NCBI GenBank assembly: GCA_964426095.1
Contig: CAYRPD010000004.1
Coordinates: 1-34,192 of the forward strand
From: an uncultured Oscillospiraceae bacterium
GTDB lineage: Bacteria; Bacillota; Clostridia; Oscillospirales; Oscillospiraceae
Length of the DNA stretch: 34,192 bases
Direction: 5' to 3'
Shown here: positions 6,923-32,804 of the stretch, piece after piece
Layout of the letters: each line of letters opens with the position of its first letter
How positions within the stretch are numbered: position 1 is the first letter of the stretch
Program-made: the position numbers and the translations under genes
The notes under the pieces: generated by a model
The model's database searches: none
What the model was told of the DNA's origin: nothing
The model's input: the letters and a program-made list of their open reading frames with translations, nothing else

Positions 6923-7534
6923 TTAGTCAAGAGCATCTTCAATACGTTGTAAAGATTGGCTGACGGATTCTAGATTGTCATGTACCGACAATATTTCATC
7001 CACGATGCTAGTTTTCTCACTACTGCCCCCCAACTCTTTCATGTATTCATCAAAAGATTGTTTCTTGTCGTTGCTTGAGGACGATTGCTGTGTAGAGTTT
7101 TCGTTAACACGTGCTACCAATTCCCGTGCATATTCATCAAAAGTTTTTTTCTTGCCGTTGCTTGAGGAGATAACGTTATCTTCATCCATGGGAGTTGTTC
7201 CGTTAAGCTCCGGGGTGTTAAAGACTTCTATACTTTGTTTTATTTCATCGACTACATTGTTTGTGCTTTTATCCGTAGAAGAATCTGACAACCAATTGTC
7301 AATTGAATCTAATGCATTGTCGATGTTGCTTTGTGCGGAGGATAATTCTTCACGGAAATTCTCATAGTCGAGTTTGTTTTTGGCTTCATAGTACCCAGAT
7401 TCGTAACCGCGAGCATAGCCCATTTCCCGACCTTCGGCATAGGCGGCATCTAAATCACTTTGTGAATATGTTCCGCAACCGCAGAGGGAAACGAGAAGCA
7501 CCAATGCAAGAATAAACAGAGCAGACTTTTTCAT
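6923..7534 (-). CDS. secreted lipoprotein (moron; possible superinfection-exclusion factor)
   Basis: Start moved to MKKSALFILALVLLVSLCGCG (signal peptide + lipobox L-C-G-C) with RBS aaaggaa. Internal repeat KKxxFDEYxxEL occurs twice. It shares the motif EIKQSIEVFNTPELNGTT with the giant protein. Confidence 0.75.
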   Translation of the reverse strand: MKKSALFILALVLLVSLCGCGTYSQSDLDAAYAEGREMGYARGYESGYYEAKNKLDYENFREELSSAQSNIDNALDSIDNWLSDSSTDKSTNNVVDEIKQSIEVFNTPELNGTTPMDEDNVISSSNGKKKTFDEYARELVARVNENSTQQSSSSNDKKQSFDEYMKELGGSSEKTSIVDEILSVHDNLESVSQSLQRIEDALD

Positions 7535-15324: not shown

Positions 15325-17349
15325 ATGGATGAAATCAAAAGCATTACCCCGGCACTGGATAGCCGCCCGGTGAATAGCGAGACGCTTACTAAATTCAATC
15401 TCGCTTTGAACAAGTACAAGGCCGGTAAGAAAAGTGTAGAGACGCGCGCTATAGCGGCGGAAAACTGGTGGAAGCTCCGCAACCAAACCGAGACAGAGAA
15501 AGAAACCATAGGGCTGGCAGGGTTCAAAGCTAAGAGCGGGTGGTTGCATAATGTCATAGTTGCCAAACACGCAGACGCTACAGAAGCTTTTCCCGAACCT
15601 AACATCCTTGCGCGCGAGCCGAACGATGTCAAGGAAGCCGGTATGCTCAGCAAGATAGTCCCCGTTGTGCTGGACGCGAATCACTTTGAAGAAACCTACA
15701 GCGACTGCGCATGGCAGAAGCTCAAGACAGGTACAGCGATATATAAAGTTTACTGGGATTCGGACAAGCTGAACGGCCTCGGAGATATCGCAGTGCAGAG
15801 GGTGGACGTGCTCAATGTGTTTTGGGAGCCGGGCATAACAGATATACAGAACAGCAAGTATTTCTTTCACACCGCATTCGTTGACAATGAGGTGTTGGAG
15901 AGCGCATACCCCCAGCTCAAGGGCAAGTTGAAAGCAGCGGCCTTTGTCCCTGCCGATTTCCAAACAGATGATAGCGTGCCGAAAGATAACAAGTCTGTCG
16001 TGATAGATGTGTACTACAAGAAGCGCGAGGACGGCAAGACGGTGCTGCACTACTGCAAGTATGTCGGCAATGAGATTCTGTACAGCACGGAGAATGACGG
16101 AGCGCTGCCGCACAGTGTAGAGCCGCCCGCCGTGGCCGTGCCTATGGTAGAACCGGGGAGTATGCCCCTGCCCGGAGCGCAAGACGATGCGGGGAGTGTA
16201 CAGGATAATATATCCGAACAGATAACGGGGAGTATACCTGCGGCCATGGGCGGAGCAGTACCAATGACTGCGCCGCAGACGATACACCAAGGGCTGTACG
16301 ACCATGGGCTTTATCCTTTTGTGTTTGACCCTCTCTTCCCGATAGAGGGCAGCCCCTGTGGGTATGGGTACATTGACCTTTGCCAAAACAACCAAATGCA
16401 AATTGACCTAATGCAGACGGCATTCTTGAAGAACACAATGGTGGGCGCAATGCCCCGGTACTTCTCACGTATGGACGGGTCAATCAACGAAGAAGAGTTC
16501 TTAGACCTCAACAATCCCATAGTTCACGTGAACGGAAACCTGGGGCAGGACAGCCTAAAGCTTATAGACCACAAGGCGCTGAACGGTAACTACCTCAATA
16601 TGCGCACGTCCATAATAAACGAGCTGCGCGAAACGAGTGGAAACACGGAAGCTAGCAACGGCGTTATATCTTCGGGGGTAACTGCGGCCTCAGCTATAGC
16701 CGCGTTGCAAGAAGCGAGCGGGAAAGGCAGCAGAGACAGCAGCCGCGCAAGCTACCGGGCGTACTCCCGCATTGTCAATCTGTGCATAGAACTGATTCGA
16801 CAATTCTACGATATCCCCCGACAGTTCAGAATCACAGGGCAGCTCGGCGCGGAAACCTTTGTGCGCTATTCCAATGAGGGCTTGAAGCTACAGACGGAGC
16901 AGAGCGGGAACGTAATGCTTGCCCGCTTGCCGGAGTTTGATATCAAAGTCAGCCCGGCGAAGAGGTCAAGCTACAGCCGCATAACGCAGAACGAAATGGC
17001 ATTGCAATTCTACAACCTCGGCTTCTTCAATCCCCAAATGACAGACCAAGCGCTGGCTTGCTGTTACATGATGGACTTCGATAACAAAGACACGGTAATG
17101 CAGATGATTAACTACAACGGCACAATGTATCAGAAGCTTGCGCAGTTCCAGCAGCTTGCCCTTGCCCTTGTGCAGAAATACGAGCCGGAGCGGGTTAATG
17201 AGCTGGCCGCTTCTATCACGGGACAGGCTGCGCCCGCCGCGTCAGCCGGAAGCGCCGAGGATATAAAGTTAGCACCTGACACGGAGGAAGATACCCGCGT
17301 GCAGAACACCCGCGCCAAGAGCCAATCATATTCACAGCCGGAGGGATAA
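15325..17349 (+). CDS. portal protein
   Basis: 674 aa, immediately after terL, with an acidic/disordered C-terminus. Assigned by size and position; no motif verified. Confidence 0.75.
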   Translation: MDEIKSITPALDSRPVNSETLTKFNLALNKYKAGKKSVETRAIAAENWWKLRNQTETEKETIGLAGFKAKSGWLHNVIVAKHADATEAFPEPNILAREPNDVKEAGMLSKIVPVVLDANHFEETYSDCAWQKLKTGTAIYKVYWDSDKLNGLGDIAVQRVDVLNVFWEPGITDIQNSKYFFHTAFVDNEVLESAYPQLKGKLKAAAFVPADFQTDDSVPKDNKSVVIDVYYKKREDGKTVLHYCKYVGNEILYSTENDGALPHSVEPPAVAVPMVEPGSMPLPGAQDDAGSVQDNISEQITGSIPAAMGGAVPMTAPQTIHQGLYDHGLYPFVFDPLFPIEGSPCGYGYIDLCQNNQMQIDLMQTAFLKNTMVGAMPRYFSRMDGSINEEEFLDLNNPIVHVNGNLGQDSLKLIDHKALNGNYLNMRTSIINELRETSGNTEASNGVISSGVTAASAIAALQEASGKGSRDSSRASYRAYSRIVNLCIELIRQFYDIPRQFRITGQLGAETFVRYSNEGLKLQTEQSGNVMLARLPEFDIKVSPAKRSSYSRITQNEMALQFYNLGFFNPQMTDQALACCYMMDFDNKDTVMQMINYNGTMYQKLAQFQQLALALVQKYEPERVNELAASITGQAAPAASAGSAEDIKLAPDTEEDTRVQNTRAKSQSYSQPEG

Positions 17350-17352
17350 GCG

Positions 17353-17664
17353 ATGACTAAGATAATCTATGATGAATCGAACAACGTATTAGAGATAAGC
17401 GGCCACGCAGGAGCGGGAGAGCCGGGAAAGGATTTGGTGTGCGCTGCCGTTACAATTCTCATGCGCACGCTGGAAGCTTCGGTTATGGATAACCGAGCTA
17501 GACTGTGCCCCACGGTGTGCCATAAAGACGGGTATGTAAGAATCCAATGTAACCCCCCACCCAGGGCAAAAGCAAAGAGCAAAGAAATCTTCACCACGAT
17601 ATACCGCGGGTATGAGCTGTTAGCGCAGCAGTACCCGGAGTATGTAAGAACCGTAATATATTGA
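17353..17664 (+). CDS. Prp-type cysteine protease (ribosomal-processing cysteine protease family)
   Basis: 103 aa. SGHAG...GKDLVCAAVT places the His18/Cys30 dyad 12 residues apart, as in Prp. Confidence 0.75.
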   Translation: MTKIIYDESNNVLEISGHAGAGEPGKDLVCAAVTILMRTLEASVMDNRARLCPTVCHKDGYVRIQCNPPPRAKAKSKEIFTTIYRGYELLAQQYPEYVRTVIY

Positions 17665-17677
17665 GGAGGGAAAAGAA

Positions 17678-18748
17678 ATGTCATTACTTGTAGGCATAGA
17701 CGAAAACAAAAAGCAGCAGACCGCCGCGACACAGGCCGACACTACGCCGACCGTGGATAAGGTGGTGCATCAGGACACGGCCACGCAGACCGCTACCCCG
17801 GCAGTGAAGACTGCCACGCAGTCAACTACCCCGACAACGACAGCCAACACCACGGCAACCACGACCCCGGCCACAGCAACGGCAACCACGAGCGGGAGCG
17901 GGAGCAGAAGCGCGGTATATGAGAAAGCCATGCAAACGCTCAAGCAGGCGCAGGGTAACGCGCCCACATATTCATCTTCGTATGATGATGATATCAATGA
18001 GATATACAATCAGATTGTCAACCGCGCGCCCTTTAAGTATGACTACAGCACTGACCCGCTTTACAACCAGTACAAGGAGCAGTATACCCAGCTCGGCAAG
18101 CAAGCCATGAAAGATACCATGGGGCAGACGGCGGCGCTCACCGGGGGCTACGGCAACAGCTACGGAAGCGCAGTAGGACAGCAGCAGTATGACGCATATC
18201 TGCAAAGGCTGAATGATGTTGTGCCGGAACTGTACGGGCAAGCCTATGATATCTATTCGCAGGAAGCAAACGACTTAGAAAAACAATACTCCATGCTCCT
18301 TGACAGGCAGAACACGGAGTATAACGAATGGCGCGATGCGTTGTCAGATTACCGCTACGACCAAGCGCTGGAGCTTGACAAGGGGCAGCAGCTTGCGAGC
18401 GACCTTGCGGCATACGGGGACTTCTCCGGCTATGCGGAGCTGTACGGCAAAGACGCGGCGGCCAAAATGGAAAAGGCTTGGGCGGTTGCGAATCCTCTGC
18501 CGGCATACATAAACGGACAGATAGACGCAGAGGAATACTACAGAATAGTCGGCGAATATCCCATAGGCTACACTCCGCCCGGTTCTTCATCGGGAAGCAG
18601 CGGCGGGGGCTGGACGTTCGACCCGTGGTATGGCGGAACGGCGAGAGATACCAGTACAGATAAAAGCGCAACGAAGACAGAAACAAAGAGTTCTGCTGTA
18701 ATTACTCCGACAATAATTAACAAGTATGAAAGGTATTATTACAAGTAA
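17678..18748 (+). CDS. Thr/Ala/Pro-rich virion-associated protein (function unknown)
   Basis: 356 aa. Low-complexity aa 15-75, a Tyr/Gln/Asp-rich core and a Gly/Ser tail. RBS gaggaggg. Confidence 0.7.
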   Translation: MSLLVGIDENKKQQTAATQADTTPTVDKVVHQDTATQTATPAVKTATQSTTPTTTANTTATTTPATATATTSGSGSRSAVYEKAMQTLKQAQGNAPTYSSSYDDDINEIYNQIVNRAPFKYDYSTDPLYNQYKEQYTQLGKQAMKDTMGQTAALTGGYGNSYGSAVGQQQYDAYLQRLNDVVPELYGQAYDIYSQEANDLEKQYSMLLDRQNTEYNEWRDALSDYRYDQALELDKGQQLASDLAAYGDFSGYAELYGKDAAAKMEKAWAVANPLPAYINGQIDAEEYYRIVGEYPIGYTPPGSSSGSSGGGWTFDPWYGGTARDTSTDKSATKTETKSSAVITPTIINKYERYYYK

Positions 18749-21700
18749 TATGAGTAATAAGATATTAGAAGAAATAGAAAAAAGTATTGCCGCGTATAAT
18801 ACTCCAGAGCTTAACGGCACAACAAAAGCGCAAGCCCCGGCAACGAAAGAAAATGCAAGTAATGCATATAGAATAAATACAATACCTTCTTCGCAGAATA
18901 ACGTGTTAGGCGAAATAGGAAAAAGCGTTGCCGCGTTCAACAATTCTAAGCTTAACGGGACAAACGGCTGGAAAATGAAGTCGTATACGAAAAACCCTCA
19001 AACCAAAGCCAAGAAGAGCGTGGTATCCTATGACCAAGGGGGTAAAGTAAACGCATGGCAAACTGCACTGAACGTTCTAAATGGGATTGACAGTGCAAAG
19101 GTTAAGGCGCTGAGCAATCAGAAGTACAGCGACAGATTCAATGAAGAGGTATTAAAAGAGTATACGGCTCGCGGTGGAAAAACCTTTTTAGGCAAAGCTA
19201 TGAACGCGAATTTGTACAAGCAAATTGAAGATGAGCTTACGCCGAACTATGCTCCGGCGCAAACTTCATATGAAAGAGCCAAACTCCCCGCCAGCATGGC
19301 AAGAGATTCTATCGTTGAAAATGCACAGGCGGCGCAGTATCTAGCTGATTATTACGAGAACCCGACAGTAGCAATCGAGGGAAGCCGAACGAGAGGTAAT
19401 ACCCTTGACTATCTGCAAAAGTATGAAAACATGGGCTTTGGAGAAAAGCTCGCAAACACGGCAGGGAATGCTGTGGTTAACTACGGCCTTGATCTGTCGA
19501 ACACATTGCTTACCGGGGCAGACGCATTAACAGGCGGAAAGCTCAGCAACGGCAACAGCAAAGCAGCTTCTATCTATTCTGCGCTTAACTTTGCGCAGAA
19601 TGCGGGGAGCGGGTTAACCTCTCAAGCTTACAACAGTATGCGTGAAAGCTCTAACTGGTTAGGTAAGCTCATCCTTGACTTGGAGAAAACAAGTGTAGAG
19701 CAATTGCTTGACCGTGCCTTTTCAGCATTTGGCATGAACGGAGCAAACAGCCTTGTATCAATGGGGGCTAGAGTGTTTGGCTCGGGTGCGCAGGAAGCGG
19801 AGAACGAGGGTAAAAGCCTGAGAGAACAGTTATTAACAGGTGGAATACGTTCCGGCATAGAGATTGGGACAGAATTATTAGGCGGTGTCGGCGGCTCGTG
19901 GAGGGGTACGGGTTACGGTGACGCAGTGTTTAACTCGCTGGATAAGTGGGTTGGAACAAAAACGAATAAAGAAATGCTTGGCACTTTGGCAAGCGCATTC
20001 GGCAGTGAAGCGACAGAAGAAATGCTGTCGGATATTCTCAATCCTTTAGCGGATAGAATATTCAACATCAGCAACGGCGATCAGACCTTTTGGCAAGAGG
20101 TATGGGGTGACGGGCAAATCCTTTATGACGGTTTACTGGGTGGGCTTGCAGGATTGGGCGGCGGCCTTGGCACATCTTTTTCTAACGCTTCAGCGGCGAA
20201 GTACTTCGGTGTAGATGTAGCTACATATAAAGCAGCGCAGAGAATAGCCGGAGATAAGAAGCTTCGCAAAAAGTATGAGAAGTATACGGGTGAACACCTG
20301 CAAGAGAATGAATCGACATCCATAATGCAGATAGCCGTTGGCCTTACCGAGACAGCAGAGAAAACAGATAGCACTACCCGTGCGCTTGAAAACGATATCC
20401 GCCAATACAAAGCAGAGCCGCACGGTACGCAGAGCGCCACCACCCCCGCGGCACTCTCCACCTCACAGACGGATACGAGCACACTCGCTGCCGCTAACGT
20501 TGCGCAGAACGCGTCAGAATCGCCCACAACGAACGAGAGCGCGAGGACAAGCACGAATACCACCCCCGCACAAAACTATTCACAGAGCACCATACAGGCC
20601 AAAGCAGCGGCACTCGGAGACATGACCGCAATATACAACGGCGCAGAAGCGCGCGTAACCAGCATGGTGAAAATGGATAACGGGAAGTACGCGGCACAGA
20701 TAGAGTACCCCACCAGCAAAGGCATAAAGAAAAGGCAACTCACCGAAGACAAGCTGACCTTTGACCCGGAGACAAAGCGCCTTATCAATATGTTCCGTCC
20801 GTATGAATACAGCAGCGAAATGCTTTTTAATTACGATGCGCAAAAGGACGGCGGGGAAAACCTTGCGGCGTACACCATGGCCTTTAACACCGTGGCGGAT
20901 ATCCTCGGCAAGCAGACAACGCTTTCTGAGGAAGCGGCGAAGCAGTACGTGCAGGGCGAGCCGGGGCTGGCAAGCACCTTGTCTGAAGAACAGATTACTG
21001 CGGCATTCAGAGCGGGAAGAAAGAGCAAGGATGCGCGTGTACAATCCAGCGTTACTCGCAAGGGCGGCACGGGCAAGCTCGTGTTCGGGAAAAGCATAAC
21101 CGTGCAGGGAATGCAGTACCAAGCCGCCACTGAGGACATGGTAAGCCAAGCAGAGCGGGAGGTGTTGCAGACCGTAGCAAAGGCGGCGGGCGTGGATATC
21201 TTCTTCTATCAGTCTGAGGAAGCGGAGGGCATATACCAAGGGGCAAACGGGTTTTACCGTAACGGCACAGTATACCTTGATGTTAACGCCGGGGCAGAGA
21301 GGACTACGGAGCAGTCGGCAATCCTGCTCACGGCGGCGCATGAACTCACGCACTACCTTAGAGAGAACAACGCCGAGGGTTACGCCGAGCTGCGGGACTT
21401 TGTCACAACGCACCTTATACAGGACGGCACGGACATAGTTACACTTGCCGAGCAAAAGATAAGAAACGAGGGCGGGGAAAACTATGCAGACTTTACATTG
21501 GAAGACGCGATAGAAGAAGTCGTGGCCGACAGCTGCGAAATGATGTTGGAGAACACCCAGCTTCCGCAGATAATGGCGCAAGAAAACCCCGACCTTTACA
21601 GTAAGGTTAGGGGCTGGCTGAGAAAGTTTGTAGAGAATCTGCGCCGCGCGTTCGAGGGCGTGACAGCGAGAAGCCCGGAAGCCCGCGCCATGGTGCAGTA

Positions 21701-24700
21701 TGCCGGGGAGCTTCAGCAGATATGGGACAATGCCCTGGCCGACACCGCATTGAAGCCGAGAGAGAAGCGCGGCGCGAGCGGGAGCACGAAGTATTCTTAT
21801 GCCGGGCGTAATGCAAGCACGGCGAATATGGAGACGCTGTCTAAGGCAGAGGAGCTAGAGCGCAACGGCGAGGATTGGAACACCATACGCAATGAAACAG
21901 GTTGGTTCAGAGGCATGGATAACAAATGGCGATATGAAATCAACGACAGCAATATGGAGTTTCGCAAAGGTGGTGATGTACAGTTACTCGCAGAGCCGGA
22001 GTATCAGCAGCTTATAGATTTGACAGATAAGTGGGCAGCCTCGTTTGACGGCGGTGAAGCTTTAACCGAAGCCGAAGAAAATGAAATGACCCGTTTGAAA
22101 GAAAAATACGGCGCGGAAGTATGGGAAGATAAATATATGCTCCGCGACTTTGTAAAGCATGATGAGCTGTTCGAGGCGTACCCTCGCTTGAACAGTGTCG
22201 GCTTGCAGTTTGATGAACTGCCGGACGGAGTGAAAGGCTATTACAGCAAGCGCGGCAATACGATTATCTTAAATGAAAGCTTGTTTGGTAAAGAGCCTGA
22301 TGTAGTACTGCACGAGATACAGCACATCATACAAAAGATTGAGGGCTTCACCGGCGGCGCGAGCGTTGAGTATTGGGAAGAGCAAATGAAAAACGGTTAT
22401 TCCAAACGAGGAAGCCGTGAATCGGATATGATGCCGGGCGAGCTTTACCGTAATACAGCCGGGGAAATAGAAGCGAGAGACACAGCTTCACGCCGCAAGC
22501 TGACAGCAGAAGAGCGCCGCAGCAATGCCCCTGTACGTGCAGACGAGAACACCGTGTTCGCTGATGATGAACGGTCGTACAGCGTTAGAAATTATAAGGG
22601 CAACAGAATTGTGTGGATTGATACTGATATAACAAAACAAAAACCTAGCGATGTGCCAATACAGGATTATGTCCAGCGATACATATCGGACATGGCATAC
22701 GATAGGAGTGACTTCTTAGCTACATTGCCGGAAAGCGGAATTAACGTGTATGCGGAGAAAAAAGGTAGAACACCGAAAAGCAAATACGGTTTGGCTGAAG
22801 AGTATGTTAGGTCAACTTATTCCCGTTGGCTCAAAGACAACTCCAAGAGTGCATTCCGTGCAAAAATGAAAGCAGCTGGTGTTCTTGATGAATTGGTATC
22901 AATTGCGACTGGGCGGAAGTGGAGCGAAACTGAACACTCGCATAATAAAGACGCAAGGTATGGAGTAGATACGTACAGAAGCTCTTTCGCGTTTCCAGTC
23001 AAAGATAATATGGGTAAGCTTGCAAATGTCAGAGCATACGACTGTAAGCTGATAGTATTGAATGCCAGTGACGGCAAAAAGTATTTATACGATGTGACAG
23101 GAATAAAAGAAAACACCAGTAAGGCAAAGGACGTTCTCCTTTCGGAGCGTCAGAGGGCGGCTTATAGAGCCGCACGCCAAACTGATGTTGTCAACAATAT
23201 ATCACAGCCCGGTGAAGAAGTCAACAGTAAGTTTTCCCGCCGTGCGGCAGATGATACAATGACAAAGGAACAAGTGCGGGAACAGCAGATAAGCCGTGCG
23301 GAGCTGTTGCGGGAGAACGAGGCGTTGAGACAACGCGCAGAGTATTGGAAAGGGCAAACCCAGCTTACCAAAGAAAAGACTGTGCGCAATACGGACACGC
23401 ACAAGTTTGCCCGCGACATGGCGGAAAAGCTTGATGTAAAGAACCGTGAGGCCGTGGCTGAGTTTGAAGACGCGGCGCAGCACATGGGCAATTACATCGT
23501 GCAAAGCGACAGTGAGACCTTAGACTATGACACGCTTCACACCATGGCAAGCGAGACGGCGGATATTCTGTTGAGCAATTCCGAGGTTGAAGTGGAAAGC
23601 GGCATGGAAGAACAGCTCGGTGAGCTTGCCGATTACATCAAGACGCATAAGCTCAAGGTGAACGAAACGGAGCTAAAGGATTTGCCTAAAGAGTGGCTGC
23701 GCCAGCACAGGCGCTTTATCAAACTCAGCTCGGACGGTACACCGATAGATGTGGCATGGCAGGAGTGGCAAGAGCAATTCGGGGAAGGTATGTTCCCCTC
23801 GGACATTACAGCGCAGTCGGATATGCTTCAGCGCCTTGCCGATATAGAGCAGGGCTGGAGAACATATAAGGCCAATCCCTTTGAAAATAACATGGCCGAA
23901 ATGCGGGAGATTGTGGCGCAGGAAATAATAGATACCATGCTCAGCGATGAGATACGGCAGACCGCGCCCACCGCCGCCGACCGTGCCAAAGCCAAGGCAG
24001 ACAAACGCTACTCGGATATGCGACAGGCCGAACGGCAGCGCGCCAATGAGCGCATAGCAAAGGTGCTTGAAGAGGGAAAGCAGCGGACAAAGGATGCGGT
24101 AAAGGCCGAGCGCACATTCCAGCTTCAAAGGGTGGAACGTATACAAAAAATGAATAGCATAAAAAAGCTTCGTGACCGTATGATAAAAAGCCTTACGGAC
24201 AACACGGGCAAGAACCATGTGCCGGATATCCTTAAAGAACCCGTTGCTCAACTGCTGCAGAGCATAGACCCGACAACCAAGCGCACCCGCCAAGCCGGGA
24301 CAAAGCTTTATGTAGAATCTCTTGAAAAGCTTCAGCGGGTATTAGAACAGCAACGCAAGCACAATGCGCATACCTTGGATGAGAACGAAGCCGAGGGCGA
24401 GGGGGCAGATCTGTTCTTCGATATCCCCGTAGAGTTTACCGAGCAGATACAAGATTACGTGGATAACGTTAAGCATTGGGGCGAGTTTTCCAAGACAACA
24501 ACATTCAAGCTGGAAGACATGAGCTTGCAGGGGCTGAACGATTTAGAGAATATTCTGCGCGTGGTGAGGGGTGCTGTCAATAATGTTAACGAGCTGTACG
24601 ATATGAACACAACAGCCTCCGAGCTTGGGAATGAGACGATAAACTATCTTGCGGAGATGAAAGAGAAAACCAAGGTAACGGGTGGAATGGAAAAGTTCCT

Positions 24701-27700
24701 CGGCTTTTCAAACCAAACCCCTGTGTATTACTTTGAGCGCTTCGGTGAAGCGGGAAAGAAAGTAATGAAATCTCTGACGGACGGCTGGGATAAGTTCGCG
24801 TTCTATACGGATGAGATATTGAGCTTCGCAAAGAATCTGTATTCAACAAAGGAAGTGCGCAAGGCCGAGCGAGATATACGTATAGTACAGCTTCATGAGA
24901 CGCTGGCGGACGGATTGACGGACAGCGTAACCGTCCCGGTATCCATGACACGCGCGCAGATAATGAATCTGTACGGCGCGGCACGCAGGGGCGAAGCGTC
25001 ACTTAATCATATTCTCGGAGCGGGTATAGAGATTACGGCAATAAAGCCTAAGGTGGGAAAGGCCACAGCGCAATCTAAAACTTATCTCTTTGAGGATATC
25101 TACGAGCTGGCGCAAATAATAAACGACAATCTCACGGCAAGGGATAAGCAGATAGTAGACGCAATGATAAGCTTCATGAGCGGGCCTGTTGCGAAGTGGG
25201 GTAATGCCGTCAGCCAAGAACGCTGGGGAATAGATTTGTTCACCGAGGAAAACTACTGGCCTATAATAACAACACGCAACAGCCACAATGTATCTAACTC
25301 GGATTCGGCGGGAGCGTCAACCAGCATATACCGCTTAATGAATATGGGATTTACAAAGAAGCTCACCCCCGGCGCGAACAATCCCGTGGTTATCGGCAGT
25401 GCGTTTGATGTGTTCGCTAACCATACTTCGGACATGGCAAAGTACGGCTCAATGGTATTGCCTATCCTGAACACCATGAAGTGGATTAACTACTCTTCGG
25501 CCACGGGCAACAGGACGCTGCAAGCCGGCATAGATTCTGCGTCCCCGGGCAAAGCATATTCCCAGTACACAACCGTGTCCGTGAGAAAATCCATGGATAG
25601 CATATACGGGCGTGAAGCGCAGGACTATCTCGTCCAGCTCTTGCGTGACCTCAACGGCCAAAGCGGCGGGATAAGCAGCGTGGACTTTGTAGATACGCTG
25701 ACTTCAAACTACAAGCGCCAAGCCGTGGCGGCCAATCTGCGCGTGGCCTTGCTCCAGCCCACAAGTATTATCAGGGCATTTCATGTTTTAGAATCGAACG
25801 GATTAAGCATGGATACATTGCGCTCGTTCGCAGTCAAGAAGAATTACGAGGAAGCGAAAGCGAACAGCGGCATAGCACTGTGGAAAGACTTGGGCTTTTA
25901 TGACACTAACATAAATGCCTCTGTGCGAAAGCAGATAAAGCACGATGAAAGCTTTATTGATAACCTCGTAGACAAATCAATGTTCCTTGCCGAGAAAGGA
26001 GACCGGCTGACATGGAGTATCTTGTGGGGTGCGAGCCGACATCAAGTTAAGCAGGAAGCAGCGAAAGTCGGGCAGAAGCTGACGCACGAAGAGCTTATGC
26101 AAAAGACTAATGAGCTTTTCACCACGGTGATATATAAAACCCAAGTGGTGGATTCTCCGCTTACCCGAAGCCAGCTTATGCGCAATAACGATAAGCTTAG
26201 CAAAGCTCTGACTGCGTTCATGGCCGAGCCGACATTAAGCTATAATGTCTTGGCCGAGAATGTACATGAGTTTGCGAGGGAAACCAGCGCGCATGATATT
26301 CCCACGGCGTGGAAGAAATGCGGGAAAAAGATTCTCCGAAGCTTGGTGATATACAGCGCGTCCGCTATTCTCACAGCGGCGGCGGCGAGCCTTGCCGATG
26401 CCGGGAGAGACGATGACGAATATAAAAAGCTTTGGCAAAAGTGGCTGGAAAAATTCAAGGGCGAAGAAAGCTTTTGGGACAGCAACATATGGGCGGAACT
26501 TAATCCTCTTACCAAGCTCCCGGCTATAAAAGATATCTTCAATCTTATTGCCGGGCAGACTTCAAGTAATATGTGGCTTGAGGGATTCGATTCTGCGTAC
26601 AGTGCAGTCAAGAGTATCTATGAGAGAATCGGCGAAAAGGATGATTTGTTCCGGCTAGAAATGAAAGATTGGCAGGTTGCTTATCGCGGATTAAAAGCAG
26701 CGTCCCAGCTCGCGGGGCTACCTCTAATGACATTCACACGAGATGCCGTAGGCTTGTGGAATACAACAGTCGGAGCTTTCACCGGGAAGTATATCCACAA
26801 CTATGACTACGACCAAGAGAAAGCTATACGCAATGCCTACCGCAGCGGGTACTTAGACGAAGAGCAGGCAATGAATCTTCTCATGGATAGGGACACCATG
26901 GGCGACAACGTTTATTTCACGGAGCACGCGGCGCAGGTGAAGATAGCCGACTGGACGAACGACAGCATAGAAGCGATGTACGACAGCCTTTACACCGCTA
27001 TGGAAAACGATGACCGAGCGGGTTTTAATGCGGCAATGGAAAGCCTTGTGAAAGACGGAAAGCGCTATCACTATGATGTGATAGGCAATGTCCGAAGCAC
27101 GATTAAGGAGTGGTACATCGGCGATGAACACGGGGCATATAAGCTCAACAGGGACATGGCCGTGGATATGCTGACGGATTACGGCGGGTACACTACGGAC
27201 GATGCAAAGAAGACGGTGCACCAATGGACGTGCGAGAAAGTAGAGGGCTTCAGCTACACCAACCGGAAAGAGTTGTTTCTGCTCGGAGATATCACGAGGG
27301 ACGAAGCGATTAAGCTTGTAATGGCATACGGCAAGGACGATGACGGCAAGCTTCTTTCCGACTATGAAGATAAGTCCGCCGCAAGGGAAGCAGCCGAAAA
27401 GGAAGTGCAGACTTGGCAAATGGCGCTTGACACCAAGATAGACTACGAGAAAATCCGCAGTGCCTATGATGCCGGAGAAATAAGTGAAGCGCAGCTGAAA
27501 GAGTATCTCATGACATACGGCAGTTTAGAAGAAGAATCCGCAGAAAATAAAGCGTACCTTTGGCAATGGAAAGAGGGCGATGACAAGCTGGGAAGTATTA
27601 CGAGCGCGCAAGCGCGGCGGTATGATAACTACATTGTCGGCGCGGGCGTAGACATTACCAAGGAACAGTATGCGAATTTCATTGACGGAAACTTGGCAAG

Positions 27701-27908
27701 TGAGTTTAGCGGTGATCTGAAGCCTGGGAGTACAACCTCTTATATACCCTACAGCAAGCGAAATAAAATATGGGCGTACATAGACACTCTGCCACTAACC
27801 CCGGAGGAAAAGGACGCAATGGCTGTTGTATACGCATACGATAATAATCCGGACACTTCGGCAAATTCTTCGTATTTCGATTTGCAAGAAGCCCCTTGGA
27901 ACAACTAA
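18726..27908 (+). CDS. giant multi-domain (polyvalent-type) virion protein, 3,060 aa
   Basis: Single uninterrupted ORF. An alternative start at ATG 18750 lies 1 nt after the upstream stop. Features are the duplicated N-terminal motif, a Gly-rich region, HELTH (21339-21353), HEIQH (22311-22325), a nuclease-like module, coiled-coil stretches and a large C-terminal region. Confidence 0.85.
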   Translation: MKGIITSNMSNKILEEIEKSIAAYNTPELNGTTKAQAPATKENASNAYRINTIPSSQNNVLGEIGKSVAAFNNSKLNGTNGWKMKSYTKNPQTKAKKSVVSYDQGGKVNAWQTALNVLNGIDSAKVKALSNQKYSDRFNEEVLKEYTARGGKTFLGKAMNANLYKQIEDELTPNYAPAQTSYERAKLPASMARDSIVENAQAAQYLADYYENPTVAIEGSRTRGNTLDYLQKYENMGFGEKLANTAGNAVVNYGLDLSNTLLTGADALTGGKLSNGNSKAASIYSALNFAQNAGSGLTSQAYNSMRESSNWLGKLILDLEKTSVEQLLDRAFSAFGMNGANSLVSMGARVFGSGAQEAENEGKSLREQLLTGGIRSGIEIGTELLGGVGGSWRGTGYGDAVFNSLDKWVGTKTNKEMLGTLASAFGSEATEEMLSDILNPLADRIFNISNGDQTFWQEVWGDGQILYDGLLGGLAGLGGGLGTSFSNASAAKYFGVDVATYKAAQRIAGDKKLRKKYEKYTGEHLQENESTSIMQIAVGLTETAEKTDSTTRALENDIRQYKAEPHGTQSATTPAALSTSQTDTSTLAAANVAQNASESPTTNESARTSTNTTPAQNYSQSTIQAKAAALGDMTAIYNGAEARVTSMVKMDNGKYAAQIEYPTSKGIKKRQLTEDKLTFDPETKRLINMFRPYEYSSEMLFNYDAQKDGGENLAAYTMAFNTVADILGKQTTLSEEAAKQYVQGEPGLASTLSEEQITAAFRAGRKSKDARVQSSVTRKGGTGKLVFGKSITVQGMQYQAATEDMVSQAEREVLQTVAKAAGVDIFFYQSEEAEGIYQGANGFYRNGTVYLDVNAGAERTTEQSAILLTAAHELTHYLRENNAEGYAELRDFVTTHLIQDGTDIVTLAEQKIRNEGGENYADFTLEDAIEEVVADSCEMMLENTQLPQIMAQENPDLYSKVRGWLRKFVENLRRAFEGVTARSPEARAMVQYAGELQQIWDNALADTALKPREKRGASGSTKYSYAGRNASTANMETLSKAEELERNGEDWNTIRNETGWFRGMDNKWRYEINDSNMEFRKGGDVQLLAEPEYQQLIDLTDKWAASFDGGEALTEAEENEMTRLKEKYGAEVWEDKYMLRDFVKHDELFEAYPRLNSVGLQFDELPDGVKGYYSKRGNTIILNESLFGKEPDVVLHEIQHIIQKIEGFTGGASVEYWEEQMKNGYSKRGSRESDMMPGELYRNTAGEIEARDTASRRKLTAEERRSNAPVRADENTVFADDERSYSVRNYKGNRIVWIDTDITKQKPSDVPIQDYVQRYISDMAYDRSDFLATLPESGINVYAEKKGRTPKSKYGLAEEYVRSTYSRWLKDNSKSAFRAKMKAAGVLDELVSIATGRKWSETEHSHNKDARYGVDTYRSSFAFPVKDNMGKLANVRAYDCKLIVLNASDGKKYLYDVTGIKENTSKAKDVLLSERQRAAYRAARQTDVVNNISQPGEEVNSKFSRRAADDTMTKEQVREQQISRAELLRENEALRQRAEYWKGQTQLTKEKTVRNTDTHKFARDMAEKLDVKNREAVAEFEDAAQHMGNYIVQSDSETLDYDTLHTMASETADILLSNSEVEVESGMEEQLGELADYIKTHKLKVNETELKDLPKEWLRQHRRFIKLSSDGTPIDVAWQEWQEQFGEGMFPSDITAQSDMLQRLADIEQGWRTYKANPFENNMAEMREIVAQEIIDTMLSDEIRQTAPTAADRAKAKADKRYSDMRQAERQRANERIAKVLEEGKQRTKDAVKAERTFQLQRVERIQKMNSIKKLRDRMIKSLTDNTGKNHVPDILKEPVAQLLQSIDPTTKRTRQAGTKLYVESLEKLQRVLEQQRKHNAHTLDENEAEGEGADLFFDIPVEFTEQIQDYVDNVKHWGEFSKTTTFKLEDMSLQGLNDLENILRVVRGAVNNVNELYDMNTTASELGNETINYLAEMKEKTKVTGGMEKFLGFSNQTPVYYFERFGEAGKKVMKSLTDGWDKFAFYTDEILSFAKNLYSTKEVRKAERDIRIVQLHETLADGLTDSVTVPVSMTRAQIMNLYGAARRGEASLNHILGAGIEITAIKPKVGKATAQSKTYLFEDIYELAQIINDNLTARDKQIVDAMISFMSGPVAKWGNAVSQERWGIDLFTEENYWPIITTRNSHNVSNSDSAGASTSIYRLMNMGFTKKLTPGANNPVVIGSAFDVFANHTSDMAKYGSMVLPILNTMKWINYSSATGNRTLQAGIDSASPGKAYSQYTTVSVRKSMDSIYGREAQDYLVQLLRDLNGQSGGISSVDFVDTLTSNYKRQAVAANLRVALLQPTSIIRAFHVLESNGLSMDTLRSFAVKKNYEEAKANSGIALWKDLGFYDTNINASVRKQIKHDESFIDNLVDKSMFLAEKGDRLTWSILWGASRHQVKQEAAKVGQKLTHEELMQKTNELFTTVIYKTQVVDSPLTRSQLMRNNDKLSKALTAFMAEPTLSYNVLAENVHEFARETSAHDIPTAWKKCGKKILRSLVIYSASAILTAAAASLADAGRDDDEYKKLWQKWLEKFKGEESFWDSNIWAELNPLTKLPAIKDIFNLIAGQTSSNMWLEGFDSAYSAVKSIYERIGEKDDLFRLEMKDWQVAYRGLKAASQLAGLPLMTFTRDAVGLWNTTVGAFTGKYIHNYDYDQEKAIRNAYRSGYLDEEQAMNLLMDRDTMGDNVYFTEHAAQVKIADWTNDSIEAMYDSLYTAMENDDRAGFNAAMESLVKDGKRYHYDVIGNVRSTIKEWYIGDEHGAYKLNRDMAVDMLTDYGGYTTDDAKKTVHQWTCEKVEGFSYTNRKELFLLGDITRDEAIKLVMAYGKDDDGKLLSDYEDKSAAREAAEKEVQTWQMALDTKIDYEKIRSAYDAGEISEAQLKEYLMTYGSLEEESAENKAYLWQWKEGDDKLGSITSAQARRYDNYIVGAGVDITKEQYANFIDGNLASEFSGDLKPGSTTSYIPYSKRNKIWAYIDTLPLTPEEKDAMAVVYAYDNNPDTSANSSYFDLQEAPWNN

Positions 27909-27915
27909 CAAAAAA

Positions 27916-27949
27916 GAATCCCCGAAAAAAATCGGGGATTTTTTATTTT
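27916..27949 (+). terminator. intrinsic terminator after the giant gene
   Basis: aatccccga / tcggggatt stem with an A6 loop, followed by ttttatttt. Confidence 0.75.
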
Positions 27950-27996
27950 CCTCCCAAAAGTACCGTAGAGAAATTGGAAAAGTATTTTGTATAATA
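27945..27996 (+). promoter_or_regulatory. late-promoter element, copy 2 (52-nt repeat)
   Basis: Same length and layout as 13177-13228. The first 30 nt are identical, then T-GGAAA-N9-TATAATA. Confidence 0.55.
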
Positions 27997-28074
27997 GGGG
28001 CAGGAAGACACCGAGGCAGTCGCCCTGCCTGGCATTACAGCCGAAACAAAGCAGAAAGGTTATGGAGGATTCCT

Positions 28075-29091
28075 ATGTATAAATTTAATTGGCTTCAGAC
28101 CTTTGCCGAGGGCAGCGCACCCGCGGGCAATGCAGGTGAGGGAGCAGGAAACACGGGCGTTACTTCCCCTGCTGACGCCGGGCAGGATTCTAGCACCAAT
28201 ACTTTGGAAGCGTTGGGAGTACCCAAGAACAAAGTGGCGAGGTATGAAGCGTCATTAAAGCGCCGAGGCATACAGCCCAAAGAACAAACCGCCCCGCCGC
28301 CCGCCGTAGCCCCGGCAACAAGCACCGAGCCGAACGAGAAAGCCGACAACGCCGGAGCTTCTGCAAAAACACCTTGGGAAGATATTCTCAAAGACCCGGA
28401 GTATAAAGAAGCATTCAATAACCAAGTCAACGGCATTATGCAAAAGCGTCTTGCAAAGGCGCAGGAGCGGGAAGCAAACGTAGCCAAGCTTGCCCCGGCA
28501 CTCGAAGTCCTTGCGGCTAAGTACGGCGTGGACGTGGGCGACTATGAAGCGATTGCCCGCGCGGTCAATGACGATGATGATTTCTACAGAGAAAAGGCCG
28601 CAGAAATGGGCGTTGATGTGAAAACGGCAAAGGAGCTTACCCAAAGCTCCCGCGAGTTGCACAGGCTGACCGCAGAAAAGCAGGACAGTGTCAGACAGCA
28701 GTATGTGCGCGAGCATATAGCAAGGCTCAATCAGCAAGCGGAGAATCTGAAAGCGGAGTATCCGGGCTTCAATCTTTCAGAGGAAATGCAAAACGAGATG
28801 TTTGTAAAGCTCACCGCGCCGGGAATGCTCACCGTTGAGGACGCGTATAAAGCCGTGCACAGAAAAGAGATTGAAGCTTCAAAGGAAAGGGCGTTGCAGG
28901 AGCAGGCATTGGCCGCCGCCACCGCCACCATAAGAGCAGGGCAGCAGAGACCGAAAGAGAATGGAAGCTCTGCCGCCGCAACGATAACCCGCGTACCTCC
29001 CGCGATGAGGAGTAAAGCGGAAAGAGCGGAGCTTCGCCGCCAAATATATGCGGCAGGAGCGAACGGGAAGAAACTACCGCGAGATTGGTAA
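28075..29091 (+). CDS. scaffolding protein
   Basis: Start moved to ATG 28075 (RBS ggagga, 5-nt spacer); the track ORF reads through the terminator and promoter. Ala/Glu/Lys/Gln-rich helical composition, directly upstream of the capsid gene. N-terminus MYKFNWLQTFAEG. Confidence 0.7.
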   Translation: MYKFNWLQTFAEGSAPAGNAGEGAGNTGVTSPADAGQDSSTNTLEALGVPKNKVARYEASLKRRGIQPKEQTAPPPAVAPATSTEPNEKADNAGASAKTPWEDILKDPEYKEAFNNQVNGIMQKRLAKAQEREANVAKLAPALEVLAAKYGVDVGDYEAIARAVNDDDDFYREKAAEMGVDVKTAKELTQSSRELHRLTAEKQDSVRQQYVREHIARLNQQAENLKAEYPGFNLSEEMQNEMFVKLTAPGMLTVEDAYKAVHRKEIEASKERALQEQALAAATATIRAGQQRPKENGSSAAATITRVPPAMRSKAERAELRRQIYAAGANGKKLPRDW

Positions 29092-29130
29092 CACTGCTTC
29101 TTCCCGTAACATAGGAAGGAGAAATACAAA

Positions 29131-30222
29131 ATGTTTAAATATGAATGGATTCAGTACTTTGCAGACGCGGGCACGCTCGTGAATGCAACAGGCGCTTATG
29201 TCAACGCCTACACCGGCGCAACCACGGAATTCAGCGGGGCAGATACGCTTGCTCCCGAGCTTAAAGCGTATTACGACACGGAGCTTTTGGAGAACGCGCG
29301 TACCGAAATGATATATGCGCAGTTCGGCAAGCGCCAGCCGCTCCCCGCAAACCACCAGGGCAAGGTGGAGTGGCGCAAGTTCAACACCTTTGCCCGCGCG
29401 TCAAAGCTCGAAGAGGGCGTTATCCCCACGGGGCAGAAGCTTGGCATGACTTCTATTACCGGCACGGTAGACCAGTACGGCACATATACCACCGTGACGG
29501 ACAAGCTGGAGCTTCGCGCGTATGATGATATCATCCTCGCCGCCACAGAGGAAATGGGCGCTTCTGCCGCAGAGACGCAGGAAGCCCTTATTCGTGATGC
29601 GCTGCTTGTCGGCACGAACGTGCTCTACTGCGACAACATAAACATTACCACCGGCGCAGTAACCGGCACTACGCCCACGAGCTGCGCGACCATGGGCGCG
29701 AGTACGGAAAACGGCTGGGCTATGCTTACTCCCGCCGTCATAAACAAGGCCGTTACAATCATGAAGAAGAACCGCGTGCCGAAGATTGACGGGTACTACT
29801 ACGCCGTTATTCATCCCTCTGTGGCAAGCGACCTCAGGCAGAATGCTGAATGGATTGACGCGCACAAGTACGCCATGCCGGAGCAGATATACAACGGCGA
29901 GATCGGCGAGCTTCACGGTGTGCGCTTCATCGAAAATGTGTTTGCGCCCGTGCTCAAAGACACCGACACATACAAGAATAAGGACGGCGGCGCGACCTAT
30001 GCAACGTACTTCTTCGGCAAAGACAGCTTCGGTATTATCGACCCCGAGGGCGGCGCACTTGAGATGATTGTGCATAACAAGAACGAGATAGGCGGACCGT
30101 TGAATCAGTTCAGCACTATAGGCTATAAGTTTGAGACCAACGGCGCGACTATCCTTTACCCCGAACGTGTTCTGCGCGTGATGAGTGTATCCAGCTCCAG
30201 CGCAACCGATGAGGTAAACTGA
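29131..30222 (+). CDS. major capsid protein (HK97-fold, resembles the N4-gp56-type family)
   Basis: 363 aa with RBS aaggaga, located after the scaffold. Sequence style (KVEWRKFNTF..., GGPLNQ...IGYKF) recalls the N4-gp56-like capsid family; unverified. N-terminus MFKYEWIQYFADAG. Confidence 0.75.
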   Translation: MFKYEWIQYFADAGTLVNATGAYVNAYTGATTEFSGADTLAPELKAYYDTELLENARTEMIYAQFGKRQPLPANHQGKVEWRKFNTFARASKLEEGVIPTGQKLGMTSITGTVDQYGTYTTVTDKLELRAYDDIILAATEEMGASAAETQEALIRDALLVGTNVLYCDNINITTGAVTGTTPTSCATMGASTENGWAMLTPAVINKAVTIMKKNRVPKIDGYYYAVIHPSVASDLRQNAEWIDAHKYAMPEQIYNGEIGELHGVRFIENVFAPVLKDTDTYKNKDGGATYATYFFGKDSFGIIDPEGGALEMIVHNKNEIGGPLNQFSTIGYKFETNGATILYPERVLRVMSVSSSSATDEVN

Positions 30223-30240
30223 GCTATACATAAATGAAAC

Positions 30241-30260
30241 AGGGGCGTATTCACGCCCCT
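30241..30260 (+). terminator. 7-bp GC hairpin after the capsid gene (possible partial terminator)
   Basis: aggggcg-tattca-cgcccct; weak T content downstream. Confidence 0.3.
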
Positions 30261-30281
30261 GCTGTTGAAAGGAGAATTATT

Positions 30282-30530
30282 ATGGCAAAGGCTAATGAGA
30301 CTGCGGCAAAGGTTGAGACCACAAACAGAGTGAAATACAGAGTACCCAAGGGGTCAAGCAAAGAAGACCCAAATCTTTTTGTAGCCATAAACGGGAAGAC
30401 CTATCTTATCCCGCGCGGGGTTGAGGTGGAGATACCCGACTTCGTTGCAAAAGAAATTGAGAGAAGCAGCGCCGCGCGCGATAACTTCTATGAAACAGTT
30501 GAAGAGCTTGCCGTAAAACCCGGCAAGTAA
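30282..30530 (+). CDS. small structural-module protein (82 aa)
   Basis: Start moved to MAKANE after aaaggaga (6-nt spacer). Confidence 0.6.
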   Translation: MAKANETAAKVETTNRVKYRVPKGSSKEDPNLFVAINGKTYLIPRGVEVEIPDFVAKEIERSSAARDNFYETVEELAVKPGK

Positions 30531-30549
30531 CGTGTGAGAGGAGACCGCC

Positions 30550-30930
30550 GTGAACTGTATGGATATTATAGACCGGGTAGATATCATGGAACCCAATGCG
30601 TATTGCCCGGAACAGAAATTAAAGTGGCTGTCCATACTGGACGGCAAGATTTATGAAGAGGTGATCCGACCGTGCGAAGAAAGCCCGGCCGGATTTACCG
30701 AATACTCCAACGGTGACGAAGAGCTTATAGTGCCGTCCCCTTATGACTATGATATTTACTATCACTATCTAATGGCGATGATAGATGCCGAGAACTCCGA
30801 AACCCAGCGCTACAATAAACGCATGACGATGTTCAATAACGCGTATACGGAGTTTATAAACTGGTATAACAAAAGCCATAATCGAAGCCGAGCGCGACCG
30901 GGCAAAGAGCCGAAGCATTTTCTTTTCTGA
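30550..30930 (+). CDS. putative head-tail connector/adaptor protein
   Basis: GTG start after gaggaga. Assigned by position after the capsid gene; Tyr/Asn-rich helical C-terminus. Function inferred from position only. Confidence 0.4.
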   Translation: MNCMDIIDRVDIMEPNAYCPEQKLKWLSILDGKIYEEVIRPCEESPAGFTEYSNGDEELIVPSPYDYDIYYHYLMAMIDAENSETQRYNKRMTMFNNAYTEFINWYNKSHNRSRARPGKEPKHFLF

Positions 30931-30943
30931 CAGGAGAGCTAAT

Positions 30944-32689: not shown

Positions 32690-32802
32690 TGCGAAATTTA
32701 GAATACCCGCCTATTCTCAAAGGCACGGCAGAAGAACAGTTAGAGCAGCTGAGAGAGTATATGCTGCGAGTGGTGCAGAAGCTTAACGAGGAGAGCGATT
32801 AA
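32689..32802 (+). CDS. 37-aa helical peptide
   Basis: TAATG overlap with the upstream stop; RBS gggag. Not in the track. Confidence 0.4.
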   Translation: MRNLEYPPILKGTAEEQLEQLREYMLRVVQKLNEESD

Positions 32803-32804
32803 TT

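Follow-up and report, generated by a model that had tools for sequence, protein, structure and literature searches.

The window analysed here is a 34,192-nucleotide stretch of DNA from an uncultured Oscillospiraceae bacterium (contig CAYRPD010000004.1 of assembly GCA_964426095.1), and it holds the left part of a prophage adjoining alaS (56-2698). We studied a giant open reading frame (ORF) at 18726..27908 on the plus strand, which runs for 3060 amino acids (aa) without interruption. The plus-strand genes follow the order replication initiator, TerS, TerL, P22-like portal, Prp, p356, the giant gene, a scaffold-like gene (phrog_13908), major capsid protein (MCP), p98, p126, and p581. The minus strand carries an integrase-like gene (3590-4696) and a CI-like helix-turn-helix repressor gene (6329-6733), both judged by eye. 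The giant gene takes up 26.9% of the window and approximately 29.5% of the visible prophage. An earlier reading of the same DNA, called the original prediction below, had described an uninterrupted 3,060-aa ORF making up about 27% of the visible prophage; the ORF is confirmed.

The gene caller placed the start of the giant gene at ATG 18750, two nucleotides past the stop codon of the upstream ORF (17678..18748). This is more likely the true start, and it gives a product of 3052 aa (P0001). The mass of the giant protein is approximately 340 kDa. Independent assemblies, namely P0002 (ENA k141_329456), P0003 and P0005 (Logan), and P0007 (a Hadza metagenome), contain intact orthologues (2,874-3,221 aa) whose modules follow the same order; the ORF is therefore no artefact of assembly. 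Thousands of cluster representatives have a comparable size, and we found no point in favour of an artefact or a fusion of several genes, the chance of which we regard as negligible.

By its domains, the giant protein falls into an established class, that of the polyvalent proteins of phages. LPD23 at aa 1023-1079 was the single significant Pfam domain (E 6.6e-24, 83.9 bits against a gathering threshold of 27), and LPD23 is one of the domains by which polyvalent proteins are defined (Iyer et al. 2017, J Bacteriol; PMC5512222). The protein is also the large multidomain product of a prophage with TerS, TerL, and a P22-like portal directly upstream. A word-indexed search returned 135 homologues. 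Among the 120 listed, the length ranged from 1,752 to 4,555 aa, and the precomputed domains included ART-PolyVal, LPD1, LPD3, PBECR3/4, MuF_C, ddrB-ParB, SNF2/ResIII, DNA methylases, and M23 peptidase. The Pfam entries from the polyvalent inventory found in homologues were PF18760, PF18796, PF18798, PF18812, PF18814, PF18819, and PF18763. The term "polyvalent" in the original prediction is thus borne out by LPD23, by the domain set of the homologues, and by the cassette swap described below. Species-representative genomes yielded 139 relatives, nearly all in Clostridia of the gut or rumen (Oscillospiraceae, Lachnospiraceae, Ruminococcaceae, and Acutalibacteraceae), and cultured carriers include Waltera intestinalis, Flavonifractor sp. 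An100, and Butyrivibrio proteoclasticus P6B7.

Phage polyvalent proteins are predicted to be packaged and to be processed by a metallopeptidase (Iyer et al. 2017; PMC5512222). We consider it likely that the giant is a polyvalent protein expressed late, with the structural operon, by a short-tailed temperate prophage of a gut Clostridia host. With similar confidence, we propose by analogy that it would be packed in the capsid and ejected with the DNA. The proposal draws on the position in the operon, on the class argument of Iyer et al. (2017), and on three analogues discussed below (H66 gp60, phi24B gp47, and the phi1/phi4 ORF of LM41).

Comparison of 119 homologues, mapped onto the window protein, divides its sequence into at least eight modules with a three-part plan: a conserved N-terminal scaffold, a hypervariable central cassette, and a conserved C-terminal half. 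Conservation among the homologues falls sharply across aa 1000-1500. Most of the modules named in the original prediction were located, namely a duplicated N-terminal motif, a Gly-rich stretch, a Ser/Thr/Ala linker, two HExxH motifs (aa 872 and 1196), and one hydrophobic helix (aa 2539-2557). The nuclease-like module that it had also named was not recovered, as no nuclease family matched the giant protein in any library searched; PBECR and MuF_C nuclease domains are found in some homologues. Searches with the whole giant protein gave no match in the Protein Data Bank (PDB) by sequence and none in NCBIfam, including the PLxRFG model.

In the N-terminal scaffold, N1 (18993..20405, +; aa 90-560) is conserved, Gly-rich, and helical. 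Gly makes up 12-18% of the residues over aa 201-500, and the stretch LLGGLAGLGGGLG lies at aa 470-482. The AlphaFold2 (AF2) model shows helices at low confidence in N1, which is also found in giant proteins with no other detectable similarity to the window protein. A Ser/Thr/Ala-rich low-complexity linker (20412..20609, +; aa 563-628), disordered in the model, leads to N2 (20613..21785, +; aa 630-1020). N2 comprises a small beta domain and then a zincin-like metallopeptidase domain, and was modelled as strands followed by helices. H872, E873, H876, and E931 were invariant in 14 diverse sequences, an arrangement that corresponds to the gluzincin pattern given for polyvalent-protein metallopeptidases by Iyer et al. 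(PMC5512222). All library matches of N2 (eCIS_core, DUF5700, and snapalysin, and jannalysin by Foldseek with a probability of 0.66-0.75) were below the threshold; thus, we call the domain zincin-like and not a proven zincin member. It is probably active. A Foldseek search of the PDB with the N-terminal model (aa 90-1285), which was poor (mean predicted local distance difference test, pLDDT, of 56), gave no significant match. Only 4 of the 3060 residues of the giant protein are cysteines, and one of them, C936 (in EEVVADSCE), adjoins the invariant E931.

The central cassette (aa 1024-1503) consists of two halves. V1 (21795..22577, +; aa 1024-1284) contains LPD23 and the second HExxH domain (H1196), which is DUF6782-like at a sub-threshold E of 6.5e-4. 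V2 (22578..23234, +; aa 1285-1503) is a domain of approximately 220 aa that belongs to no known family. Although V2 resembles LPD3 by eye, blastp (E 0.5) and hhalign (P 0.22) did not support a divergent LPD3, and this assignment was rejected. V2 occurs without V1 in P0004-P0006 (82% identity) and in P0008 and P0027 (62%). Of the 119 homologues, no more than 14-31 have the cassette. The central inserts of the 45 closest homologues were 305-698 aa long, formed at least six clusters, and contained LPD3, LPD23 with a peptidase-like domain, ART-PolyVal, or sequence that could not be assigned; ART-PolyVal in a sibling cassette was detected with an E of 2e-16.

The exchange of the cassette is seen at nucleotide resolution in a sibling phage, L003. 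The identity of the two DNAs is 96.6% over window positions 15691-21794 and 97.6% over 23235-34157, and between them, at 21795-23234, there is no nucleotide similarity at all (1,440 nt in the window and 1,128 nt in L003). The left breakpoint (21783..21818, +; STKYSYAGRNAS) falls inside STKY/S. The right breakpoint (23226..23255, +) reads SKFS/RRAADD in the window and FRYS/RRAADD in L003. Both breakpoints coincide with a short [FY]S junction motif, and related junction peptides (GKSSMRERD, GKFSMRDNTTDD, and RSYSVRN) are found at sub-module boundaries of many homologues. The density of the motif was 3.02 per 1,000 aa in the cassettes and 0.13 in the scaffolds, a 23-fold difference, where the counts are not phylogenetically independent and some fall inside the peptidase domain. 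These observations indicate that the central cassette is exchanged by recombination among otherwise near-identical phages at [FY]S junctions, and the module shuffling that the original prediction had suggested looking for among related prophages is seen here as the replacement of a 1.4-kb cassette.

The junctions act like the conserved pre-toxin motifs of polymorphic toxin loci, as recombination sites and, more speculatively, as sites cleaved by the zincin. This likeness, which extends to the logic of cassette swapping, together with the MuF_C or PBECR nuclease domains of some homologues, could suggest that the giant is used against rival bacteria as a weapon of polymorphic-toxin type, in the manner of MuF-type toxin fusions. 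However, the variable part is central and not C-terminal, and the stop codon is directly followed by a terminator-like hairpin (27913..27944, +; 13 bp stem and T run) and then by the scaffold gene; there is no immunity gene 3' of the ORF. Pfam detected neither a secretion-system domain nor a MuF N-terminal domain. We therefore regard a weapon of this kind as very improbable, and favour a protein carried by the phage and delivered with its DNA.

The C-terminal half (approximately 1,550 aa) is conserved and mostly helical. C1 (23235..24425, +; aa 1504-1900) is conserved and highly charged; 35% of the residues in the stretch at approximately 23200-24400 are K, R, D, or E, and 5% are Gly or Pro. 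C1 is, as judged from this composition, probably helical or coiled coil. The charged coiled-coil stretches of the original prediction are thus confirmed in their charge, and the coiled coil itself is supported indirectly. C2 (24426..26825, +; aa 1901-2700) is the most conserved core and is mostly alpha-helical with small beta sheets. Its invariant polar residues include H2095, E2174, Q2344, D2426, and RDDD at 2561-2564. The sole hydrophobic helix (aa 2539-2557; 26340-26396) was the only 19-aa window with a Kyte-Doolittle value of at least 1.1. C3 (26826..27905, +; aa 2701-3060) is a helical C-terminal extension kept in about half of the homologues. Four to five internal repeats of the form EAxxxLxxYG…W were noted in C3 by eye, and their best ungapped score, 41, was not significant, as shuffles reached 43.

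Modelled with AF2 (mean pLDDT 72.9, predicted template modelling score 0.57), aa 1861-3060 were mostly alpha-helical with a few small sheets. In the PDB, Foldseek retrieved only generic helical repeats for this model (best E 0.19). In BFVD, it gave 79 matches at E<=1e-3, the best of which were C-terminal pieces of giant metagenomic phage proteins named for MuF_C, nuclease, PolyVal ART, and LPD domains. In PHROGs, aa 1435-2681 matched phrog_22978, which has no assigned function there (E 1e-139). An exhaustive HMMER search with aa 1501-2700 as the query matched the C-terminal core (aa ~1750-2700) to 3,408 cluster representatives (clusters at 50% identity) with E<=1e-3, of which 2,657 also reached E<=1e-30. 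The match lies mostly at the C-terminus of proteins of roughly 900-4,800 aa, most of them longer than 2,000 aa. We know of no experimental study on any member of the C-core family. The family and its synteny also appear in contigs assigned to Planctomycetota (L024, Thermoguttaceae) and Kiritimatiellota (L057, Kiritimatiellales; order portal, p356, giant, scaffold, MCP, p98, p126, p581), which reflects either true spread outside the Firmicutes or binning error.

The ORF directly upstream, p356 (17678..18748, +), has a T/Q/A-rich N-terminus and a Tyr/Gln-rich body and belongs to no known family; it had no match in Pfam, PHROGs, or the PDB. Its homologues form at least 2,384 clusters that carry no annotation. 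Of 79 genome loci, 49 have a p356 homologue directly 5' of the giant gene, and several of the other loci are too truncated to show the upstream side. The two genes are co-inherited as a module that moves between two genomic positions. In type A, found in the window and a few relatives, the order is portal, Prp, p356, giant, scaffold, MCP, p98, p126, and p581. Type B, the commoner one, runs MCP, p98, p126, p581, p356, and giant, and was seen in most of the loci with detected upstream structural genes. Podoviruses of the T7, N4, and F116 types keep their internal virion proteins past the tail genes, which is the position of the pair in type B.

These two arrangements mean that the minor-head-protein slot is a feature of the window lineage and not of the family. 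The original prediction had put the giant in that slot, which is right for this phage and a few relatives and does not extend to most relatives with detected upstream structural genes, whose giant gene follows the tail genes. Its positional analogy with SPP1 gp7 and Mu F is weakened, because the pair is not tied to the portal-scaffold region and the giant has no Phage_Mu_F head domain (Pfam, whole protein to E=0.1 and tiles to E=10). The MuF_C found in some homologues is a C-terminal nuclease domain and not the Mu F head domain. An RNA polymerase module was likewise absent from the giant in Pfam, PHROGs, NCBIfam, and the PDB sequence search. The original prediction had seen no Mu F signature and had called a virion RNA polymerase unsupported, and the searches agree on both counts.

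The protein encoded next to the pair in most relatives, directly 5' of p356, is p581. In the window (30944-32689, +), p581 matches phrog_511, "internal virion protein" (E 2.6e-59), and has no match in Pfam or, by sequence, in the PDB. It may be a nozzle or another ejected protein.

The position of the p356-giant pair in the internal-virion-protein slot of most relatives raises the possibility that the giant has a purely structural role inside the head or in the tail of a short-tailed phage, for instance as a head core, as a conduit for ejection, or as a ruler similar to a tape measure. The cassette would then have no effector role and would reflect relaxed constraint or antigenic drift. N1 and C1-C3, which make up most of the protein, are helical and conserved with no recognisable enzyme fold, and the Gly-rich N1 is superficially like tape measure proteins. 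Against this, the giant protein, searched whole and in tiles against Pfam, matched no tape measure family, and the cassette is swapped wholesale rather than drifting. The sibling cassettes are true enzyme domains of the polyvalent set (ART-PolyVal at the E value given above, PBECR nucleases, methylases, and SNF2). We regard a purely structural role as unlikely, and the cassette is better understood as part of an ejected polyvalent protein.

The gene content supports a short-tailed temperate phage. No tape measure, tail tube, or sheath gene was found downstream, from the capsid gene to the lysis genes, in the syntenic relatives L002 and L003, where the interval that separates the capsid gene from the lysin/holin genes holds only 6-9 genes of small or medium size. 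This confirms the statement of the original prediction that no tape measure gene lies downstream, and the podovirus-like particle it proposed is supported by this gene content and by the particles of Clostridium clostridioforme LM41 (see below). A megablast search of the structural region against GenBank phages gave no match. A collagen-like ORF with long Gly-X-Y and KGD repeats follows p581 (approximately 32787-34190, +) and leaves the window at its end; its counterpart in L003 is 535 aa long, and it is probably a tail fibre.

The head genes include a Prp-family cysteine protease (17353..17664, +). The true start of the scaffold gene is 28075, giving the N-terminus MYKFNWLQTFA/EG (28075-28110), and the listed ORF (27826..29091, TTG start) is over-extended. 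The capsid protein begins with MFKYEWIQYFA/DA (29131-29165, +). These N-termini (…QTFA and …QYFA) resemble the ribosomal L27-type leader cut by Prp in staphylococcal phage 80alpha. Because the scaffold and capsid leaders are L27-like, Prp is, by this analogy, probably the head maturation protease of the prophage. Cleavage of the giant by Prp is unsupported, since it contains just three xFA sites and none is conserved. The hairpin past the giant stop codon is the sole strong plus-strand hairpin of intrinsic-terminator type in the 17.3-29.2 kb region, and a promoter-like site (27966-27995, +) lies 3' of it. The head genes thus form two transcription units, and the boundary between them is the 3' edge of the p356-giant module.

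We compared the giant with known systems. It shares with the polyvalent proteins of Iyer et al. (PMC5512222) the giant multidomain structure, the portal-terminase phage, LPD23 and a putative zincin-like domain, and, in its siblings, ART-PolyVal, LPD1/3, PBECR, methylase-helicase, and ddrB-ParB; the role predicted for that class is to be packaged and delivered with the DNA. It differs from them in that its Gly-rich N-terminal and approximately 1,550-aa C-terminal modules matched no Pfam family, and in that its effectors are placed in one central slot between junction motifs and not strung along the whole length.

The counterpart of V1 in Pseudomonas phage H66 is a homologous segment of gp60, aa 2141-2358 (approximately 30% identity, E 1e-25). 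H66 gp60 (F116 p60; 3,787 aa, "PLxRFG domain-containing protein") is annotated as verified in the virion by mass spectrometry. Both proteins are giants of temperate podoviruses with an LPD23 and HExxH cassette, and both genes close a structural transcription unit with a terminator. In contrast to these shared features, no similarity is detectable beyond the cassette, H66 has a Gram-negative host, and the window protein has no match to the PLxRFG model of NCBIfam. Hardies et al. (2016; PMC4819975) counted H66 gp60 and, through its C-terminal domain, N4 gp50 as members of an extended T7 IVP-D family, whose type of protein "variably host... domains destined for the cytoplasm". The window protein resembles this family in its mostly helical model and, for most relatives, in a position after the tail genes, whereas the window pair lies 5' of the scaffold gene. 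Similarity to T7 IVP-D (gp16) itself was not found, as Foldseek of aa 1861-3060 against the PDB gave E>=0.19 and hhalign of the C-core against H66 gp60 gave P=0.28; a relationship of the C-core to T7 gp16 or the H66 gp60 C-terminus was rejected on these results.

The N4 gp50 virion RNA polymerase has an N-terminal injection part, a central catalytic cargo, and a C-terminal metallopeptidase-like part needed for encapsidation (summarised in PMC5512222). Its size (approximately 3,500 aa), its location in a podovirus capsid, and its three-part logic are comparable to those proposed here. However, the window protein lacks the polymerase module, has its zincin-like domain in the N-terminal and not the C-terminal half, and matches gp50 neither in sequence nor in fold. 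Another giant polyvalent protein of a short-tailed temperate phage is gp47 of the Stx phage phi24B (2,811 aa; LPD5, LPD1, LPD38, and MuF-C), which has a different LPD set and is likened to the window protein by description. It is abundant in virion proteomics and invisible in the cryo-electron microscopy map, and has been proposed to be an encapsidated ejection protein. In the gut Lachnospiraceae, Clostridium clostridioforme LM41 carries podovirus-like prophages of approximately 41 kb, phi1 and phi4, whose released particles were seen by electron microscopy (PMC11318856). Each has one 8-kb ORF with LPD3-like similarity, approximately 20% of the genome, at the 3' end (PMC11318856). This position, likened here by description, corresponds to synteny type B, whereas the window gene lies between Prp/p356 and scaffold.

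These analogues also bear on whether the giant is a virion protein at all. It could be a late protein of the producing cell that is encoded within the structural operon by chance, is never packaged, and serves as a cytoplasmic anti-defence or host-shutoff protein or as an assembly factor. The C-core family has no virion data, the giant lacks a MuF/gp7 head-anchoring domain, and 340 kDa is a heavy load for a capsid packaging approximately 40 kb. However, the pair stays linked to structural genes in both synteny types, an effector meant to strike first would hardly be expressed late unless it travels on to the next cell, and the analogous giant polyvalent proteins are virion components. A protein that never enters the capsid is therefore improbable in our view, and packaging with ejection is preferred.

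In the mechanism that we propose, a few copies of the giant would be packed inside the capsid, probably aided by p356, and would leave with the DNA through the portal and the short tail. The conserved N- and C-terminal helical modules would serve packaging and ejection. They may also lengthen a conduit across the Gram-positive envelope, as do the internal virion proteins of T7, N4, and F116-type podoviruses; this contribution to a conduit is less likely than packaging and ejection. The central cassette would be a payload acting in the new host, in takeover or anti-defence, and the conserved zincin may release it by cutting at the junction motifs.

Several points weigh against this mechanism. 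There is no direct evidence that the giant, or any member of the C-core family, is present in virions or is ejected. The C-core shows no detectable similarity to T7 gp15/gp16 or to the P22 or N4 ejection proteins in the Foldseek search of the PDB and the hhalign comparison with H66 gp60. The only sequence link to a protein found in a virion, H66 gp60, runs via the swappable cassette and not the conserved scaffold. The zincin assignment depends on the motif and sub-threshold matches, and the junction motif could be mere recombination microhomology or a linker. Since no function is known for LPD23 or V2, an anti-defence payload is suggested by analogy with the ART and nuclease cassettes of the siblings.

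The leader of the giant (aa 1 to ~95; 18726-19010) is hypervariable among homologues and carries a motif in two copies, at 18756..18824 (+; aa 11-33, NKILEEIEKSIAAYNTPELNGTT) and 18897..18965 (+; aa 58-80, NNVLGEIGKSVAAFNNSKLNGTN). The duplication scored above 200 of 200 shuffles (p<=0.005). One further copy is present at 7193-7267 in a 203-aa lipoprotein of the lysogeny module (6923..7534, minus strand), whose ORF has a signal peptide and lipobox (MKKSALFILALVLLVSLCGC...). The lipoprotein motif reads STNNVVDEIKQSIEVFNTPELNGTT (…VDEIKQSIEVFNTPELNGTT) and its counterparts in the giant read SNKILEEIEKSIAAYNTPELNGTT and SQNNVLGEIGKSVAAFNNSKLNGT; blastp against the ORFs of the window matched them with E values of 2.7e-6 and 1e-3. 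The original prediction had noted this duplicated motif common to the giant and the lipoprotein, and the scores uphold it. The lipoprotein gene adjoins the repressor-like gene and a four-helix membrane protein gene (by eye). Its family comprises only 5 clusters, and the motif is kept in 3 of 4 homologues.

A two-copy leader is not confined to the window protein. Among 20 non-redundant leaders, 8 had a significant two-copy 14-aa motif of their own, against approximately 0.2 expected by chance, and the spacing was 11-47 residues, mostly 35-47. Examples of such lineage-specific leaders are P0010, P0030, P0032, P0049, P0069, and P0070, with motifs such as RQSFSDWDKQQREK, VITLQEALALGNNG, and DRRKKALEILSNGN. 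This pattern suggests that the two-copy leader is a bivalent short linear motif. In the fetched loci of other lineages, of which the Logan loci L134 and L135 end before the lysogeny module, neither a homologue of the lipoprotein nor a third copy of the motif was found, and scans of IMG/VR with the back-translated leader motif found nothing.

Firmicute prophages usually carry their superinfection-exclusion genes, such as Ltp of TP-J34, in the place that the lipoprotein gene occupies here. It is conceivable, though doubtful, that the leader is the leading or targeting end of the ejected giant and that the lipoprotein copy is a surface decoy that blocks ejection by sibling phages, that is, superinfection exclusion by ejection-protein mimicry. 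More generally, if the decoy reading were true, the lineage-specific two-copy leaders would be a recognition code for packaging or ejection.

Giant ORFs of a similar kind were reported earlier from podovirus-like prophages of Clostridia. New at the descriptive level are the three-part plan, the nucleotide-resolved natural cassette swap at junction motifs, p356 as an obligatory partner, the two alternative genomic positions, and the leader in two copies, together with the copy of it that a prophage lipoprotein carries. Prophages of gut Clostridia very commonly encode giant polyvalent proteins, to which these small phage genomes give a fifth to a quarter of their length. Any mechanism of packaging and ejection must use the conserved parts, namely the leader, N1, the zincin-like domain, the C-core, and p356, and the giant scaffold could in principle carry engineered protein cargo into gut Firmicutes. 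The window phage and L003 are a natural experiment, as they are approximately 97% identical and differ only in the central cassette, and this pair makes the idea of an injected, exchangeable anti-defence payload testable.

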